Of a stretch of 15,516 nucleotides of DNA, positions 1 to 9,906 are shown in pieces (position 1 is the stretch's first letter; the number at the start of each line of letters is the position of its first letter). The stretch is from a virus (lineage: Duplodnaviria; Heunggongvirae; Uroviricota; Caudoviricetes), in the IMG/VR virus record IMGVR_UViG_2574180238_000004. One strand, written 5' to 3'. The notes beneath the pieces were generated by a model, which was given only the letters and a program-made list of their open reading frames with translations, was not told where the DNA came from and made no database searches. The translations under genes were made by a program, and so were the position numbers.

Positions 1-1284
1 TTACAGACTTCTGGAAGGTTGCGCAGCTCTTACAACACGCGGTTGATCTTCCGCAGCGTCTTCCAGCGCACTTAAATCACGGTCTTTCACCTCTGGCATT
101 TTCAGCGCAGAGATTAAACCAATCACTGAATATGCCATGATCATAATGGCGATCGGATACCAGGATTCCGTCATGGTGCAGAAAATACCCGCCAGGATAG
201 GACCAAAACCGGAAGCGATAAGACCACCAATTTCTTTAGAAATAGCCATCCGGGTAAAGCGGTTTTTACAGCCGAACATTTCTGCCATGGTAATGTTTTC
301 CAGAGCAAATAATCCCAGCACCGCACAGTTATGAATCACAATCAGTGCAACCATAATGGTGCTCGGGGCATAGCTTTTATCTACAATGATAGAAAGCATT
401 GGCCATGCCAGCACAATCGCGGAGGTATTCATAATAATATACGGGATCCGGCGACCAATTTTATCGGATAACCAACCAAGGAACGGAATGGTCATAAAGC
501 CGAGAATCGAACTGATCATCAATGCATCTGTTGGAATTGCTTTGTTAAACAATAACGTCTGCACTAAATAGCCTGCAAGGAAAGTCTGAATTAACTCGGA
601 GTTACCCGCCTGACCAAAACGCAGCCCTGTTGCCAGCCAGAAGGATTTGCTCTGGAACATGCTACCAGCAGGTGCAGGTTTTGCTGTCGGTTGGTTACTG
701 TCGTTAACCTTCTCAAAGACCGGGCTTTCTTTCAGATTCATACGCAACCAGATAGCAAAGACCATCACGACAACGCTCGCCAGGAACGGTATACGCCATC
801 CCCACGCCAGCAGTTCCTCTTTACTGAGAATGAAGAACATAAAGGCCCAGATTGCCGTTGCGCTCAAGGTTCCGCAGTTAGTTCCCATAGCCACAAATGA
901 GGAGATAATTCCGCGCTTACCTTTTGGCGCATATTCCGCCAGCATCGTACCGGCACCGGAAATTTCCGCACCTGCACCCAACCCCTGAATAATACGCAAC
1001 GTCACCAGCAAGATGGGTGCAAAAACACCAATCTGTGCATAGGTCGGTAACACACCAATTAAGGTGGTACAGATCCCCATCATGGTGATGGTAATAAAGA
1101 GCACTTTTTTACGCCCTATTCTGTCGCCCATTTTGCCGAAAATAAATGCTCCGACAATACGCGCCACATAACCTGCACCGTAGGTTCCCATTGCCAGAAT
1201 TAACGCCATTGCCGTTGATGATTCAGGAAAAAATATTTCATGAAACACTAACGCTGCGCCGAGCGAATATAACTGGAAATCCAT
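1..1284 (-). CDS. ydfJ: MFS transporter of the metabolite:H+ symporter family (ydfJ-like), 5'-truncated at the prophage junction
   Basis: 427-aa ORF with multiple hydrophobic helices and the MFS loop motif GDRIGRKK. Against family members I recall (ShiA, KgtP) it starts at the conserved (W)YDFxxY box, so about 25-30 N-terminal residues are missing. An in-frame TGA lies two codons upstream of the first Met. K-12 ydfJ is the known Qin insertion target. Confidence 0.8.
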   Translation of the reverse strand: MDFQLYSLGAALVFHEIFFPESSTAMALILAMGTYGAGYVARIVGAFIFGKMGDRIGRKKVLFITITMMGICTTLIGVLPTYAQIGVFAPILLVTLRIIQGLGAGAEISGAGTMLAEYAPKGKRGIISSFVAMGTNCGTLSATAIWAFMFFILSKEELLAWGWRIPFLASVVVMVFAIWLRMNLKESPVFEKVNDSNQPTAKPAPAGSMFQSKSFWLATGLRFGQAGNSELIQTFLAGYLVQTLLFNKAIPTDALMISSILGFMTIPFLGWLSDKIGRRIPYIIMNTSAIVLAWPMLSIIVDKSYAPSTIMVALIVIHNCAVLGLFALENITMAEMFGCKNRFTRMAISKEIGGLIASGFGPILAGIFCTMTESWYPIAIMIMAYSVIGLISALKMPEVKDRDLSALEDAAEDQPRVVRAAQPSRSL

Positions 1285-1886
1285 AATTCACAGGTGTTTT
1301 TTCCCATCCTGTGGTTTCCTTGGCGTTTTCTAGGTTTTTTCAGATAGTTGCATTTTTTAAAAAGCATCCTAAGTTCGATCTCAGTGTCTATCTGGGGCCT
1401 ATTTCTGTCCCATATATGCCCCAAAAAAACTCCCCAACAGATAAGTAGTTTTTTCATGGATTTATGCGTAAAATCAAGAACGGCTGGAAATCATTCAATA
1501 CTCACACTATCGAAAAATTTACCAGCCAACCGCAGCACGTTCTTGCATAAGGCGTGTCTGCGGTTTTTCAACTATTCAGATACATCACTCCCATCACATT
1601 CATTCCTCCGCATCAAAGGCATATAGGCTATATCACCTTGATATTTTTCTTTTTCAGATAAAAACTGTTATCTATGTATACTTTTAAACCCAATCCGTGT
1701 AGAGTCTCTGCATAAGATAGTTTGCAGTTGCCGCTTCAGCTTGCGCCATAACCGCCTGATTTTTGCTGCCACCTGTTAGCATTCCTGTATACCTGAAACG
1801 ACAATGTTTATCTACGAACTTTAAGAACACCCAAGATAAAAATTGTCAACTATATCATATATAACACATTACTAATTCGAGGCTAT

Positions 1887-2000
1887 ATGAACAGCATACT
1901 GATAATCACTTCTCTCCTTATCATATTCAGCATTTTTAGTCATGCCCTAATAAAATTAGGGATTGGCATATCCAATAACCCAGACAAAACCGATGTATAA
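1887..2000 (+). CDS. Candidate small hydrophobic protein (37 aa, one predicted transmembrane helix); not in the ORF track
   Basis: ATG preceded by GAGG 4 nt upstream; translates to [37 protein letters not shown]. Lies in the AT-rich region just upstream of ydfK. Coordinates hand-derived. Confidence 0.35.
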
Positions 2001-2068
2001 GTCAACATATCCTGAATCAGACATACAATATCGCAATGAAAATCAATAATATTTTAAGGAATATCTTC

Positions 2069-2302
2069 ATGAAATCAAAAGACACCCTAAAGTGGTTCCC
2101 TGCGCAGCTTCCTGAAGTAAGAATTATCCTAGGGGATGCTGTAGTGGAAGTAGCAAAACAGGGAAGACCTATCAATACCAGAACATTGCTTGATTACATT
2201 GAAGGAAACATAAAGAAAAAATCATGGCTGGATAACAAAGAATTATTACAAACAGCGATATCAGTTCTTAAAGACAACCAAAATTTAAATGGTAAAATGT
2301 AA
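2069..2302 (+). CDS. ydfK: YdfK/YnaE-family prophage protein (cold-shock-associated family), 77 aa from the SD-supported start
   Basis: Track ORF 2036-2302. The internal ATG at 2069 (MKSKDTLKW...) has AAGGAA 8 nt upstream, whereas the 2036 ATG has no SD. Sequence matches my recollection of the Rac/Qin YnaE/YdfK pair, and the position next to pin fits the Qin order. Confidence 0.7.
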   Translation: MKSKDTLKWFPAQLPEVRIILGDAVVEVAKQGRPINTRTLLDYIEGNIKKKSWLDNKELLQTAISVLKDNQNLNGKM

Positions 2303-3306: not shown

Positions 3307-3882
3307 CTACGGCAGTGCTGGCCATTCAATATCCTGTGCAGTTGACGTATCAACACGGTTCAGCAATACCCGATACTTTTTCCATGCTTCCAGCAACGAG
3401 ATTTCTTCCTCCGTTGCAATTTCCAGATCTGCAGCATCCTGAAGCGGCGCAATATGCTCACTGGCTACCTGCATCAGGTTGTTTTTTGTTTCTTCCGCCT
3501 CCCGGATCCGGAACAGTTTTTCTGCTTCCGTATCCTTCACCCAGGCTGTGCCGTTCCACTTCTGAAACTCCCCTTCCGGCGATAACCAGGTAACATTTTT
3601 CGGTAACGGACCGAGTTCAGAAATAAATAACGCGTCGCCGGAAGCCACGTCATAAACCGTTTTACCCCGATGATCTTCAACGAGATGCCACGATGACTCA
3701 TCACTGTTGAAAACAGCCACGAAGCCAGCCGGAATATCTGGCGGTGCAATATCGGTACTGTTTGCTGGCAGACCTGTATGAGGCGGAATATATGCATCAC
3801 CTTCACCAATAAATTCATTAGTTCCGGCCAGCAGATTATAAATTGTTATGGTCCGTGGTTGTTCACTCATTCTGAATGCCAT
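3307..3882 (-). CDS. tfaQ: Tail fibre assembly protein (lambda Tfa-like chaperone)
   Basis: 191 aa, near-identical over its length to lambda Tfa as I recall it ([12 protein letters not shown]...). Its ATG overlaps the stf stop (TAATG), indicating translational coupling. Confidence 0.9.
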
Positions 3883-6800
3883 TATGCAAGCCTCACAATA
3901 TAGTTAAATGCGATGTTTTTGACGGTGTTTTCCGCGTTACCAGCAGCGTTAACGGTGATGGTGTGTCCATGTGAGCCAATCGCAACGGAGTGCGTATGAG
4001 CACCAATACCGACAGTATGTGCGTGTGCACCTGCGCTTGCAGCAGTACCCGATACAGAGTGCGTATGAGCGCCTGCAGAAGAAGTGTTAACACTGTATTT
4101 AGAATAATCAGGTGATCCACTTCCCGGAGCACCACTGGAACCACCTGAAACAAATGTCATCGAATGGGTATGTGCACCGGCTGAAGCAGCCGTACCGCTA
4201 ACACTATGGGTATGTGCACCAGTGTTATTCGTGGATTTAGTGCCGTAATCAAACGATGATGTGGTTTTCGTCCCCAAATCCGTACTGGATGCGCTGGCGC
4301 TGTGGGTGTGCGATTTAATGCCGTCCTGTTCCTGAGACAATACGGCACGACCACTGGCGGGCTTGCCCTTAATCGTCCAGCCACGCATATCAGGAATAAC
4401 GCCTGACGGATAAGCCACTGCAAGTTTCGGGTATGCAGATTTGTCAAAAGTCTGCCCCTGCATCAGGGCATAGCCAGACGGAACGGTATCTGATGGCCAC
4501 GGGATTGGTGCGCCGACTGGGTAGCTTTCTGGTGGAAGATTTTTCGAGGTATAAACTTCTGCCCAGTCATCCTCAAAACCATAACCGTCTCTTGAAGAAC
4601 GGTAGAACAGACCACCATTTCTGTAATGCGCCTTCATCTGCAAGGTCCGGCAACTTCCGACTCCGGTATAGAAGTTAACCAGAATATAGCTGTCGCCAGA
4701 GCGGGTGACATTGTAAGCACCTGATTCGGCATTCCAGGGAACGCCACCATCCGCATCGGCATATGTATCCGTTGCCCTTCTGGCAAAAGCAGCCACATGC
4801 GCGGCGGTTAAAGTAATATCTCTGGAACCATCAAACTCAACACCAGAAACCAGTCTTGGCGTTTGCAGCTTTGTTGCTGTTAATGCATTACCGTTCAGAC
4901 TTGCGGACAGTTTGGTTCCAATAACCAGTTCGCCGGTTGCGTTATAAATAGCAAACGGTCTTAATGTATTCCAGCCACCATAAACATCACCTTGATTGGT
5001 AAGCAGCAGGTAAGTTTTAGCGCCATCATTACGCCATAATGCACCATACTCCCCACCTATCATTCGAATCTGATTACCACCACGCGCTACAATTTCGTCT
5101 GTGGCAAAAAGTTTTTTGCACGACAAATTATCGTTAACGATTAACGAATGAGACTCATAAAAACCACGCCCACTCTTAAAATCAAGGATAACGTCCGCCG
5201 CGATACATTCAGTCGCTGGATTTGTTGCCCCAAACTTATAGGTCGTATCATTAACAACGAGATCAGCACCAGGTGCGGATATTGACAGGCCATCTTCGAT
5301 AAACGCAAAAACAGGGAAAGCAGCGCCATCAACATAGAACACAGAGCGCAAATCATCGCCCTTATTACTCATCATTATTGAGTGGATGGCTCGTTCATTG
5401 TTTTGATATTGCCAGAACATTCCATAAGCATAACGCCCCCTGTCAGTCCAGCCACCAGGCATAACAAATCCGTTAAACTCGCAGTTATTCATCGGATCGC
5501 CTGCGGTTCGCGTTGCCGTGGTGATAATGACCCTTGATGCCAGTTCGCTTACTGAGCCAGCAGAACGCATAACAACAACAGGGTAATATTTTCCAGATGT
5601 TGCACCTGCAGGAGCGTTAACCCGCACATAACGCATACCACGCTTATCAGCAAAGTCTGTTTTACTGACCGCGTTAATGTTGTTCAGGAAGCGTCCCTTA
5701 TCGGGTATATCAGTGCCGTTCTGGTCTTTCTGCAGACGTTTCTCTGCATTGTCATAGGCTGATTTTACTGCCTTTGGCGTTGCCGCCAGCGTTTCAGACG
5801 TACTGTTGGTCGCACTGCTGAGCTGTACTATCCCCTTTTTCGTCGTGCTCGCATCCTCAAGCGCCACGGCGGATGCAATATCCTCTGCCCGTTTTGCTGC
5901 TGTCTCGGCGCGCGTTGCCGCGGATTCCGCCGTACTTTTGCTCTGAGCTGCCGCCGTCGCACTGCCAGCTGCCTCTGTCGCCTTCGTGGATGCCGTCGTG
6001 GCGCTGCCCTTCGCTGCTGACGCCTGTCTGGTCGCCTCATCTTTTGAAGCAGACGCCGATGATGCCGATGACGCCGCCGAACTGGCTGACGATGCGGCAG
6101 CCGTTTTTGAGGATTCTGCGCTGGTTTCCGACGCTTTCGCGTTCGTTTCGGATGTCTTCGCTGCGGAAGCTGACCTCGCTGCTACCGTGGCCTGTTCAGT
6201 GGCTTCGCCAGCCTTCGTTGTGGCTGTTGAAGCGGATGATGCGGCGCTTTCTGCCGACTTTCCGGCAGCGGTGGCACTGGCTGAGGCCTGCCCGGCATTT
6301 GTTGACGCGGCGCTGGCAGATGAGGCAGCCGCTGTTTTTGAGTCTGCTGCTGCGGAGGCACTCTGTCCCGCTGCCGTCTCAGAAGACTTTGCGTTCGTCT
6401 CGGACGTTTTTGCCGCCTTCGCGGAAGTTCCTGCCGCTGTTGCCGAGGAGGCTGCACGACTGGCGCTCGAGGCTGCGCTCGTTTCTGATGATTTTGCCGC
6501 CTCTTTTGAAGCCGACGCATCCCTGGCTGAGGTGGCAGCTTCTGACGCTTTCGTGGTCGCGGTGGATGCAGAAGTGGCGGCTGATTGTTCTGACGCTGCC
6601 GCATTCGTTTCTGACGTTTTCGCCGCACCGGCACTGGTAGCCGCCGCGCTTTTTGAGGACTCTGCAGCGGCAGCACTTTTTGAGGCTTCAGTGGCCTTTG
6701 TTGATGCCGTTCCTGCGCTGGAAGACGCTGACTGAGCCGACGACGCGGCCTGTCCGGCTGACGTGCTGGCTGCACGTGCTGAATCTGCAGCATCAGTCGC

Positions 6801-7232
6801 ACGGGTTGCCGCCTCACTGGCAGATGTGCTGGCATCACTGGCTGACTTCTTTGCGGCTGCCGTGTTCTGTGCCACCACGGACGCGTTACGCGCCACCTCT
6901 TCCACCATCAGTTCAAAACGACGCAGTGCCTCCGGACGGGCATCATCCTCCGTCATGGCACCGAGAAAATCATTCAGCGTACCGGGTTGAGAATCTTCAT
7001 ACACGGTGATGGTCCCGGCATGTGACGGCGGGAATCCCTCCACCAACAGAATAACGCTGTACTGACCGTACTCAACGTCCATGCTGTAACGCCCGGCTTC
7101 ATCCGGATTTTCTGAGGCCAGCGTGTTCACCACCACAGTGGTACTGTTACGTTTTGCTTTCAGCTGGATTGTGCAGTTCTGTACCGGTTTTCCTGTGCCG
7201 TCTTTCAGTACACCTGAAATCTTTACTGCCAT
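3882..7232 (-). CDS. stfQ: Side tail fibre protein (lambda Stf / T4 gp37-like), 1116 aa from the ATG
   Basis: N-terminus [20 protein letters not shown] matches lambda Stf. Long Ala/Ser/Thr-rich repetitive shaft, and a C-terminal tip with repeated GAHTHS / HxH motifs of the gp37 type. The track begins 2 codons upstream at a GTG (7238); the ATG at 7230-7232 is the likelier start. Confidence 0.9.
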
Positions 7233-7234
7233 AT

Positions 7235-7381
7235 TCACCCCACAAAAAAGCCCGCCTGAACCGGCGGGCTGTCATAACACTGTGTTACCTGGCTAATGGC
7301 CATTGCGGCGGCACCGGGCACCGCCGTTTTGCTGATACGGCTGAGGTTTTCAACGGCCTGCTCAAGACCTTTTATGGCCAT
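7235..7381 (-). pseudogene. Remnant of tail gene Z: the first ~29 codons of lambda Z fused to unrelated sequence
   Basis: Minus-strand ATG 12 nt after the FII stop encodes MAIKGLEQAVENLSRISKTAVPGAAAMAI, matching the lambda Z N-terminus. Similarity ends near 7293; the frame runs 18 more codons to a TGA overlapping the stf start region. Confidence 0.6.
7241..7270 (-). terminator. Intrinsic terminator immediately upstream of stf (minus-strand transcripts)
   Basis: 8-bp GC-rich stem AGCCCGCC / GGCGGGCT with a 6-nt loop, followed on the minus strand by a U-run (TTTTTTGTG). Confidence 0.55.
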
Positions 7382-7392
7382 ACATCCCCCTT

Positions 7393-7746
7393 TCAGCGGC
7401 GACGGTTAACGGCAGGCGGTACGCCCCGTCCAAGCCAGAGATGACAACTTCCGCCATCATCCGGCGAAACCCGATCTACCCAGAAATTTTCCTCACCGAT
7501 GGTCAGCGTGTCTCCACGCCGCAGCTGCCGCACCTCATCAGTCCGGACAAACAGGGACGGGCTGGAGCCTTCAACGCGCACGCCCTGTCCGGCATAGCTG
7601 ATATTTTCAGGGTCATCAAAAACACCACGTATCACAGCACCGGACTGCTCACCGGATGTCATGGTGGCTGACGTTCCCATGTACCCGCGTATCGTTTCAT
7701 CGGCGCGGGCAATGGCAGCATCGAACAGGTTATCGAAATCAGCCAC
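7393..7746 (-). CDS. Head-tail joining protein FII (lambda gpFII)
   Basis: 117 aa, near-identical to lambda FII (MADFDNLFDAAIARADETIRGYMGTSAT...). Start codon reads as GTG in my transcription. Confidence 0.85.
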   Translation of the reverse strand: MADFDNLFDAAIARADETIRGYMGTSATMTSGEQSGAVIRGVFDDPENISYAGQGVRVEGSSPSLFVRTDEVRQLRRGDTLTIGEENFWVDRVSPDDGGSCHLWLGRGVPPAVNRRR

Positions 7747-7757
7747 AGCGCCTCCCG

Positions 7758-8156
7758 TTATTGCATTCTGGCCAGGCCGCGCGCTGTCATTTCAGCTGAC
7801 ACACCGGCAGAGACACGAAACGCCGTTCCCGGCAGCACAAATGCCACAGGTTCATCCCGCGTGGCGTGAAGTGCATCAGTATGCAGCGTCACCAGTGCCA
7901 CGACCGTGACCAGTTCAGACGTATCCAGAATCACGGTATCCGGCTGCGCTGATCCCACCTCATTTTCATGTCCGGTCAGCACATTTTCCCGGCTGAGAGG
8001 GGTGTCCTGACCGGCAGTTTCATCCGTGTCATCAAGCTCCTCTTCCAGCTCTGCCACACGGAGCGCCAGTTCTTCTTTCGTCCCCGTCAGGCTGACATCA
8101 CGGTTCAGTTGTTCACCCAGCGAGCGGAGACGGGCAATCAGTTCATCTTTCGTCAT
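7758..8156 (-). CDS. DNA-packaging/head assembly protein FI (lambda gpFI)
   Basis: 132 aa from MTKDELIARLRSLGEQLNRDV, matching lambda FI. The track's 145-aa version starts 13 codons upstream and is probably an over-extension. Confidence 0.85.
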   Translation of the reverse strand: MTKDELIARLRSLGEQLNRDVSLTGTKEELALRVAELEEELDDTDETAGQDTPLSRENVLTGHENEVGSAQPDTVILDTSELVTVVALVTLHTDALHATRDEPVAFVLPGTAFRVSAGVSAEMTARGLARMQ

Positions 8157-8197
8157 GGACTCCTCCACAGAGAGAAAATGGCCCCGAAGGGCCATGA

Positions 8198-8673
8198 TTA
8201 CGCCAGTTGAACGGCCACGAACTCATCAGGATCAGCCAGCAGCATCAGCGGTGCTGACTGAATCATGGTGAACTCTCGCGCCGGATCGCCGGATGTCTTC
8301 CAGTTTTTCGGATAACGGGGAGACGCATTAATACCCTCACTCAATGCATCCGCATCCTGAATACAGCCATAGGTGCGCAGACCGCGTGCATGAGTGTTAC
8401 CCAGCACCATCGTGTTGTCCGGCAGGAAGTTCTTTTTGACGCCGTTTTCCACGTACTGTCCGGAATACACGACGATGGCCACATCGCCATACATCCCCTT
8501 ATAGGACACCGCTTTACCCAGGTCTTTCACCGCTGTCTCCAGCTCGGAATGAGAGCCACGACGGGTATCCAGCTTCTCCCTGACGGCTTTGAAGGAACGG
8601 AACAGCGCCCAGCCTTTCGGATCGAACACGATGATATTCACCACACCGCTGGCGTTCAGCGCGTAGGCTTCGA
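8198..8673 (-). pseudogene. 3' fragment of major capsid gene E (about the last 155 codons), no start codon of its own
   Basis: Translation ...IEAYALNASGVVNIIVFDPKGWALFRSFKAV...VQLA matches the C-terminal part of lambda gpE. Homology begins at the A/E deletion joint near 8673/8674; the track ORF begins at an internal GTG (8644). Confidence 0.8.
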
Positions 8674-9906
8674 TACGCGCATTTCGTAGCGGTCCAGCTG
8701 GGAGTCGATACCGGCGGTCAGGTAAGCCACACGGTCAGGAACGGGCGCTGAATAATGCTCTTTCCGCTCTGCCATCACTTCAGCATCCGGACGTTCACCG
8801 ATTTTCGCTTCCCACGTCTCACCGAGCGTGGTGTTCACGAAGGTTTTACGTTTTCCCGTATCCCCTTTCGTCTTCATCCAGTCTTTGACAATCTGCACCC
8901 AGGTGGTGAACGGACTGTACGCCGTCCAGATGTGAAAGGTCACACTGTCAGGCGGTTCAATCTCTTCACCGGATGACGAAAACCAGAGAATGCCATCACG
9001 GGTCCAGATCCCGGTCTTTTCGCAGATATAACGGGCATCAGTAAAGTCCAGCTCCTGCTGACGGATGACGCAGGCGTTATGCTCACAGAGATAAAACACG
9101 CTGGAGGGGTCATCCGGCATCCATTTGAGGCCAAACGGCGTCTCTTTGTCGCCAAATTTAAGGTACTGCTCCTTCCCGCAGTGCGGGCAGGCAACATGAA
9201 AACGCATAAAATGCGGGGATTCACTGGCTGCACGCTCAATCTGGCAGGTGCCTCTCACTTTGGGCGTGGAGCCACGGATGGACTTTGGCCAGACCGAGCC
9301 TTCAATACGTTTGTCGCCAAGGAACGTCGGAGAGCCTTCCTGTTCAATATCCTCATCAAAGGCAGCAAGTTCATCATACCCCGCCACATCCACCGACTTT
9401 TCACGGTAGTTTTTTGCCGCTTTACCGCCCAGGCACCAGAAGCCACGACCATTGGTGAAACGCTTCATAGTGAGCGTGTTATCCCGGTGCTTTTTGCCAT
9501 ACCACGGAGCCAGCGCCAGCAGCGACGGAATATCGCGGATGGTCGGCTCAACGTGGGTTTTCATAAAGTTCTCGGCATCACCATCCGTCGGCAACCAGAT
9601 AAGTGTGTTGCGCTGCTTATGCTCTATAAAGTAGGCATAAACACCCAGCAGCATTTTGGAATAACCGACACGGGCAGACTTCACCACATTCACCTCACGG
9701 ATGTAGTCGCTGCCCATCGCATTCATGATGGCCCGCTGAAAGGGCAGTGTTTCCCAGCGCCCTTCCTGGTATGCGGATTCTTTCGGGAGATAGTAATTAG
9801 CATCCGCCCATTCAACGGCGGTCTGTGGCTCCGGCCTGAACAGTGAGCGAAGCCCGGCGCGGACAAAATGCCGCAGCCTGTTAACCTGACTGTTCGATAT
9901 ATTCAC
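8656..9906 (-). pseudogene. Terminase large subunit (lambda gpA), truncated after ~410 of 641 codons
   Basis: MNISNSQVNRLRHFVRAGLRSLF... tracks lambda gpA up to ...GIDSQLDRYEMRV, then 5 foreign codons and a stop. The C-terminal third is absent. The start overlaps the Nu1 3' end by 26 nt, as in lambda. Confidence 0.85.

Follow-up and report, generated by a model that had tools for sequence, protein, structure and literature searches.

The stretch of DNA analysed here (the window) comprises 15,516 nt of a virus of the class Caudoviricetes, held as IMG/VR record IMGVR_UViG_2574180238_000004, and represents the left end of the Escherichia coli Qin prophage. The genes of this end lie in the order truncated ydfJ (1..1284, minus strand), an AT-rich non-coding stretch, an open reading frame (ORF) of 37 codons, ydfK, pinQ, tfaQ and stfQ. 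It is the 37-codon frame, the gene ynfT, that concerns us here. The frame occupies 1887..2000 on the plus strand, with an ATG at 1887 and a TAA stop at 1998-2000, and is preceded by the Shine-Dalgarno (SD) sequence GAGG at 1879..1882 (plus strand), 4 nt 5′ of the ATG. Its constant downstream partner ydfK (2069..2302, plus strand) encodes a protein of 77 aa and is cold-shock inducible. The spacer between the two genes (2001..2068, plus strand) holds the ydfK SD sequence, AAGGA, at 2057-2061. A first-pass annotation, made from the letters alone, had pointed out this frame, its GAGG and its peptide, all of which are present exactly as described. It had also placed the frame in AT-rich DNA at the prophage end just 5′ of ydfK, which is borne out by the prophage boundary near 1273-1284 and by a GC content of 36.7% for 1285-2068 versus 47.7% for the whole window. 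The sections below show that ynfT is a genuine gene, conserved at the protein level and in strict linkage with ydfK; synthesis of the protein in cells is documented in the literature.

Identity and distribution of ynfT

RefSeq carries a coding sequence, ‘ynfT: YnaM/YnfT family protein’, at the same coordinates as the flagged ORF. The counterpart in K-12 MG1655 is ynfT (b4748, 1632890..1633003, in Qin), whose DNA differs from that of the window at one synonymous site. A twin in the Rac prophage, ynaM (b4744), encodes the identical 37-aa peptide upstream of ynaE, a paralogue of ydfK. The peptide matches Pfam family PF23676 over positions 1-37 of 37 (96.2 bits against a gathering score of 27), NCBIfam model NF041477 (63.9 bits against a cutoff of 35) and phrog_35882 (E = 3e-20). 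An exact look-up of the peptide returns UniRef YNAM_ECOLI and ‘YnaM/YnfT family protein’ and places it on about a thousand or more contigs. On family score, identity to the K-12 gene and position 5′ of ydfK or ynaE, the flagged frame is the already known gene ynfT. Moreover, it is identical to the YnaM/YnfT family in peptide, length, coordinates and neighbourhood, and is in effect its type sequence. The first-pass annotation had called the ORF unlisted, which is correct for a length-limited ORF track but not for public annotation. The novelty this implied does not stand, the gene having been named and annotated since 2018; what the case does illustrate is that a sequence-only reader is able to pick out a real small gene. 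The naming itself has varied: Table 1 of one study (PMC6001520) lists the small ORF between ydfJ and ydfK (1632890-1633003) as ‘ynfQ’, a provisional name for what is ynfT in NC_000913.3, and ynfQ (b4724) in current annotation is a different gene next to cspI.

The region 1600-2320 was compared by megablast with 5426 complete E. coli genomes and was present in 2790 of them, where RefSeq lists the ynfT coding sequence. ynfT or ynaM thus occurs in roughly half of the complete E. coli genomes, and it is also found in Salmonella prophages. The remaining interest of the gene lies in its function and in its fixed partnership with ydfK. An intact annotated copy was found in 59 of 60 evenly sampled E. 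coli records. At two more diverged loci, which we label L105 and L107, 39-codon homologues (L105 691-810 and L107 1202-1321, one of them a GTG-started variant) are not called as genes. Protein databases therefore under-count the YnaM/YnfT family, whose annotation is deficient beyond E. coli and Salmonella. When viral contigs were scanned with the arginine variant of the C-terminal motif described below, no match came up. Three loci that are 99-100% identical to the window region (L005, L006 and L008) are filed under metagenome-assembled genomes of Draconibacterium, Caldithrix and Alistipes, almost certainly through binning contamination.

Conservation of the reading frame

Copies for comparison were taken by DNA similarity or via the neighbouring ydfK, and were therefore not selected on the peptide; the window copy served as reference throughout. 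The Rac copy differs from it by two substitutions, both synonymous, and that of phage 2H10 by five synonymous and one non-synonymous. In Salmonella phage 118970_sal3 the 37-codon frame is kept at 78% peptide identity, with 4, 3 and 13 substitutions at codon positions 1, 2 and 3, respectively. This corresponds to a synonymous rate (dS) of 1.08, a non-synonymous rate (dN) of 0.10 and a dN/dS ratio (omega) of 0.09, compared with an omega of 0.08 for the adjacent ydfK. The uncalled ORFs of L105 and L107 stand in the same place, upstream of genes for YdfK homologues of 72% and 67% identity, respectively (BLASTP). Here the proportion of synonymous differences (pS) is 0.69-0.88, that of non-synonymous differences (pN) is 0.15-0.17, and synonymous sites are saturated. 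Both copies carry an in-frame indel of 6 nt, have arginine in place of both lysines and retain the SD sequence. Across four diverged copies a purine-rich SD lies at the same place (GAGG, GAGG, AGGA and GGAG), and the tail motif GIGISNNPD-[K/R]-TD is invariant in five distinct peptides.

Taken together, these comparisons argue that ynfT is under purifying selection as a protein, the transmembrane segment included. The first-pass annotation had proposed conservation of the frame in Rac- and Qin-like prophages as a check on its reading, and the frame is indeed kept there. The only frameshifted copy seen, at L014, lies in a sequence with indels throughout, ydfK and the spacers included; it looks like an assembly error or local decay and not like evidence against coding. 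We did not rely on the IMG/VR loci, at which 9 of 10 polymorphisms fall in the third codon position, because these loci had been chosen by peptide identity (all are 100% identical in the peptide) and are a biased sample.

Protein synthesis and predicted structure

VanOrsdel et al. (2018) detected the product of the small ORF flanked by ydfJ and ydfK as a chromosomally encoded protein with a sequential peptide affinity (SPA) tag (PMC6001520, Table 1), and report the same small ORF as positive in tetracycline ribosome profiling. SPA-tagged YnaM and YnfT were both detected in cultures grown in lysogeny broth (LB) (PMC6001520; preprint 10.1101/511675). According to Weaver et al. (preprint 10.1101/511675), the level of YnaM-SPA exceeds that of the majority of newly detected small proteins. 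In one RNA-seq study ynfT rose 5.7-fold together with ydfK (5.3-fold), cspI, cspB and cspG (PMC13058169).

The hydropathy of YnfT peaks at 2.52 over residues 4-22. AlphaFold (AF2) predicts one helix over residues 2-30 with a predicted local distance difference test score (pLDDT) of 88.6, the tail being less confident. Together with the family models and the detection of the SPA-tagged protein, this agrees with the hydrophobic single-helix peptide proposed from the sequence. The model of YdfK resembles the connector protein AriR/YmgB in its predicted fold; a PDB sequence search with the YdfK profile gave no significant match.

The ynfT-ydfK cassette and its upstream DNA

The two genes are found together wherever ynfT occurs among phage records: the 13 records with ynfT are exactly the same 13 that have ydfK. 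In mEp460 and 2H10, which are functional temperate phages, int and attP are followed in turn by ynfT, ydfK, pin, tfa and stf. Salmonella phage 118970_sal3 has a different tail module and no pin, and its homology to the window is confined to 1834-2306, a span that opens some 50 nt 5′ of ynfT and closes at the stop codon of ydfK. We therefore conclude that ynfT and ydfK move as one cassette, and this cassette is found in unrelated phage backbones. Between the genes the spacer is variable, measuring 68 nt in the window and about 27-30 nt in L105 and L107, and being 66% identical between the window and the Salmonella phage. Folding of 1860-2110, which covers the 3′ end of ynfT and the ydfK SD, revealed no excess RNA structure (z = 0.00).

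More distant YdfK homologues, at 55-64% identity (L097-L104, from Enterobacter, E. coli and Limnobaculum), have no ynfT-like ORF upstream and are instead paired divergently with a gene of the ynfU family (PF23499) about 130 nt away. ynfT is therefore specific to one sub-clade of YdfK. In a Salmonella enterica prophage (L108, 1643-2734) the DNA 5′ of ynfT-ydfK holds a second, shorter gene of the YnaE family (70 aa) and an ORF of 137 aa with a lipoprotein-like N-terminus (…LTVIITGCSS…), so that in L108 the cassette belongs to a more extensive accessory block. Regions at prophage ends and attachment sites are the usual home of accessory moron genes that the prophage expresses.

The upstream limit of the cassette region is a strong intrinsic terminator at 1528..1575 (plus strand) that a simple scan overlooks, a hairpin followed by U5 (CCGCAGCACG...CGTGTCTGCGG and then TTTTT; -20.7 kcal/mol, z = -3.9). 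It is right at this hairpin (1526) that Rac and Qin become homologous. In intact mEp460 the terminator is found some 300 nt downstream of int, on the other side of attP, and is comparable in position to lambda sib/tI. We considered an Rfam match to CssrB (1531-1668, minus strand) as a divergent antitoxin small RNA and rejected it: its 25 bits fall short of the gathering score of 76, and the match is carried solely by the palindromic hairpin of the terminator, which has its U-tract on the plus strand.

Closer to ynfT, a conserved motif at 1834..1853 (plus strand), AGATAAAAATTGTCAACTAT, lies 34-53 nt before the ATG. Its core, AAAAYTGTCWA, is kept in the cassettes of the Salmonella phage, L105 and L107, and the homology of the Salmonella phage starts at its first position, 1834. 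The motif is a candidate promoter or operator element. The same positions form one copy of a 20-nt direct repeat, D2 (AGATAAAAAYTGTYAWCTAT; 1656-1675 and 1834-1853, plus strand). A second direct repeat, of 21 nt and 81% identity, is found at 1688-1708 and 2595-2615 on the plus strand (ACCCAATCCGTGTAGAGTCTC and ACCAATTTCGTATAGAGTCTC); both copies contain CCAAT. One lies 5′ of ynfT, whereas its partner directly precedes the start codon of pinQ (2619). A ‘ydfK promoter’ reported from genomic systematic evolution of ligands by exponential enrichment (gSELEX), TTCCCA-16-GATAAT (PMC3946193), falls within ydfJ (882-909), some 1 kb upstream, and is of no help here.

Possible roles of YnfT

In our view ynfT, a real translated gene and the first of a mobile ynfT-ydfK cassette, probably encodes a small, single-helix modulator of the inner membrane. 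The protein consists of one hydrophobic helix, at about residues 4-28, followed by the invariant polar tail GIGISNNPD[K/R]TD. It would insert into the inner membrane, and may act there by binding a larger membrane protein or together with YdfK. Binding to a larger membrane protein is how the majority of characterised E. coli proteins similar in size and shape act. Expression of ynfT probably follows that of the cold-shock-inducible ydfK. The cassette of intact lambdoid phages lies between attP/int and the tail-fibre invertase, which places it at the prophage end in a lysogen. As a functional class, the nearest likeness from established knowledge is to AcrZ, MgrB, MgtS, KdpF and CydX: YnfT likewise has fewer than 50 aa and one predicted transmembrane helix, is detected by tagging, and is encoded beside a gene sharing its regulation. 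It differs from them in having no sequence similarity, in being prophage-borne with a very narrow distribution, and in that its membrane location is predicted. The suggestion in the first-pass annotation that the peptide resembles type I toxins and small regulatory membrane proteins is plausible for the latter; for type I toxins it finds no support, given that no toxin match exceeds its cutoff and that the tagged protein accumulates.

Several observations count against a membrane modulator encoded in a cassette with ydfK. Our literature searches returned no experiment that assigns a function, location or partner to YnfT, no interaction data and no published function for YnaM/YnfT. The family is very narrow: HMMER found only four matches among 1.84 billion representative proteins, all of them trivially close. 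Since the YdfK homologues at 55-64% identity lack ynfT, YdfK has no universal need of it. Co-regulation with ydfK is a hint from a single study, with q = 0.067 (PMC13058169). We could not locate a promoter for the cassette; between the conserved -35-like TTGTCA and the nearest -10-like hexamer there are only 11-14 nt, a spacing that misfits sigma-70. Finally, no retapamulin or Onc112 start peak was seen for YnaM (Weaver et al., preprint 10.1101/511675). Because the Rac and Qin copies of K-12 share the same sequence between -53 and +23 relative to the ATG, start-codon footprints are not uniquely mappable, and we infer that the missing peak is an effect of multi-mapping.

In favour of a functionless chance ORF in AT-rich DNA, the length of the frame carries no significance by itself: an ATG-initiated ORF of at least 37 aa occurs in 90% of dinucleotide shuffles of 1285-2068, and T-rich codons readily yield hydrophobic peptides. 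However, only 1% of 2000 such shuffles yield an ORF that reaches 30 aa and has a Kyte-Doolittle mean of 2.5 or more over a window of 19 residues. Moreover, a dN/dS of about 0.09, synonymous sites saturated at 70-78% peptide identity, an indel that stays in frame and a conserved SD are not what a chance ORF would be expected to show, and the protein has been detected experimentally (PMC6001520). On the conservation pattern we consider a chance origin effectively refuted, its probability being negligible. A role as a type I toxin, that is, a membrane-damaging peptide silenced by an antisense or divergent small RNA, is very unlikely. YnfT does share with such toxins (Hok, Ldr, TisB, Ibs, ShoB, ZorO and DinQ, and PepG1 in Staphylococcus) a small hydrophobic helix with a short polar tail, residence in prophages and the presence of more than one copy, two in the case of K-12, and repeat D2 could in principle give a divergent RNA complementary to the 5′ untranslated region. 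The only toxin-family match, however, is a sub-threshold one to PepG1 (E = 0.055; 13.1 bits against a cutoff of 70), Pfam returning the YnaM family only. Nor do these sequence-based tests give a detectable signal of an antitoxin RNA: no Rfam family reaches the gathering level in the region, the minus strand has no terminator-like site, promoter-like sites stand at chance level (7, where 4.9 are expected), antisense RNA across the ORF and the 5′ region show no excess structure over shuffled sequences (z = -0.31 and z = -0.48, respectively), and D2, the sole local repeat capable of such complementarity, is not accompanied by a promoter. Chromosomally encoded, tagged protein is easily detected during normal growth, although a C-terminal tag could mask toxicity. 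Furthermore, the tight, operon-like linkage to the gene of a soluble protein, with probable co-transcription, is unusual for type I toxins.

Two further roles would take account of the position of ynfT. As a cis-acting leader, its translation, or stalling at NNPDKTD, would control translation of ydfK, the peptide being a by-product. ynfT is always directly 5′ of ydfK on the same strand, with a spacer as short as about 27-30 nt in the divergent cassettes, and shares with MifM, SecM and VemP an N-terminal hydrophobic, transmembrane segment, a conserved C-terminal motif (here proline-containing and acidic) and the place immediately 5′ of another gene. By contrast with these leaders, no structure that would hide the ydfK SD is predicted at the 3′ end of ynfT, the spacer varies in both length and sequence, a match to an arrest motif is not known, and the downstream gene is not a membrane-biogenesis factor. 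The selection on the peptide as a whole, the accumulation of the tagged protein and the existence of YdfK homologues with no ynfT also speak against a leader, which we regard as quite unlikely. We infer neither a pore-forming toxin nor a cis-acting leader peptide. Alternatively, YnfT may be a factor of lysogenic conversion or superinfection exclusion, in which an inner-membrane peptide expressed by the prophage stops incoming phages at DNA entry or at some other step, a special case of a membrane modulator for which the HK97 gp15 moron offers a parallel. The position between the tail-fibre genes and attP/int in mEp460 and 2H10 is typical of morons, the self-contained cassette moves between unrelated backbones, and roughly half of complete E. 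coli genomes retain it. Set against this, no PADLOC defence model matches YnfT or YdfK, the PHROG families of both are listed as of unknown function, and the cold-shock link has no obvious tie to exclusion. We consider exclusion unlikely as the specific role.

Returning to YnfT as a modulator of the inner membrane, gene linkage and the modelled fold of YdfK would allow a more specific and highly speculative version, in which YnfT is the membrane arm of a phage-borne, cold-induced two-protein module with the AriR/YmgB-like YdfK and acts on a membrane signalling protein of the host, for instance a sensor kinase or a phosphorelay component. If true, such a module would let the prophage retune envelope or biofilm responses of the host at low temperature. 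The strict linkage to ydfK as a mobile cassette, the invariant C-terminal motif and the AriR-like fold predicted for YdfK offer starting points for work on function.

Other features of the window

Compared with Qin of K-12, the window has about 5.8 kb more DNA (4071-9897). This extra DNA includes a full-length side tail fibre gene of 1118 aa (3882..7238, minus strand), the K-12 stfQ being truncated and fused next to nohA. E. coli 1303, among others, matches the window at 100%. Because it is longer than K-12 Qin and has a full-length stfQ, the window represents a strain other than K-12 in which Qin is more complete.
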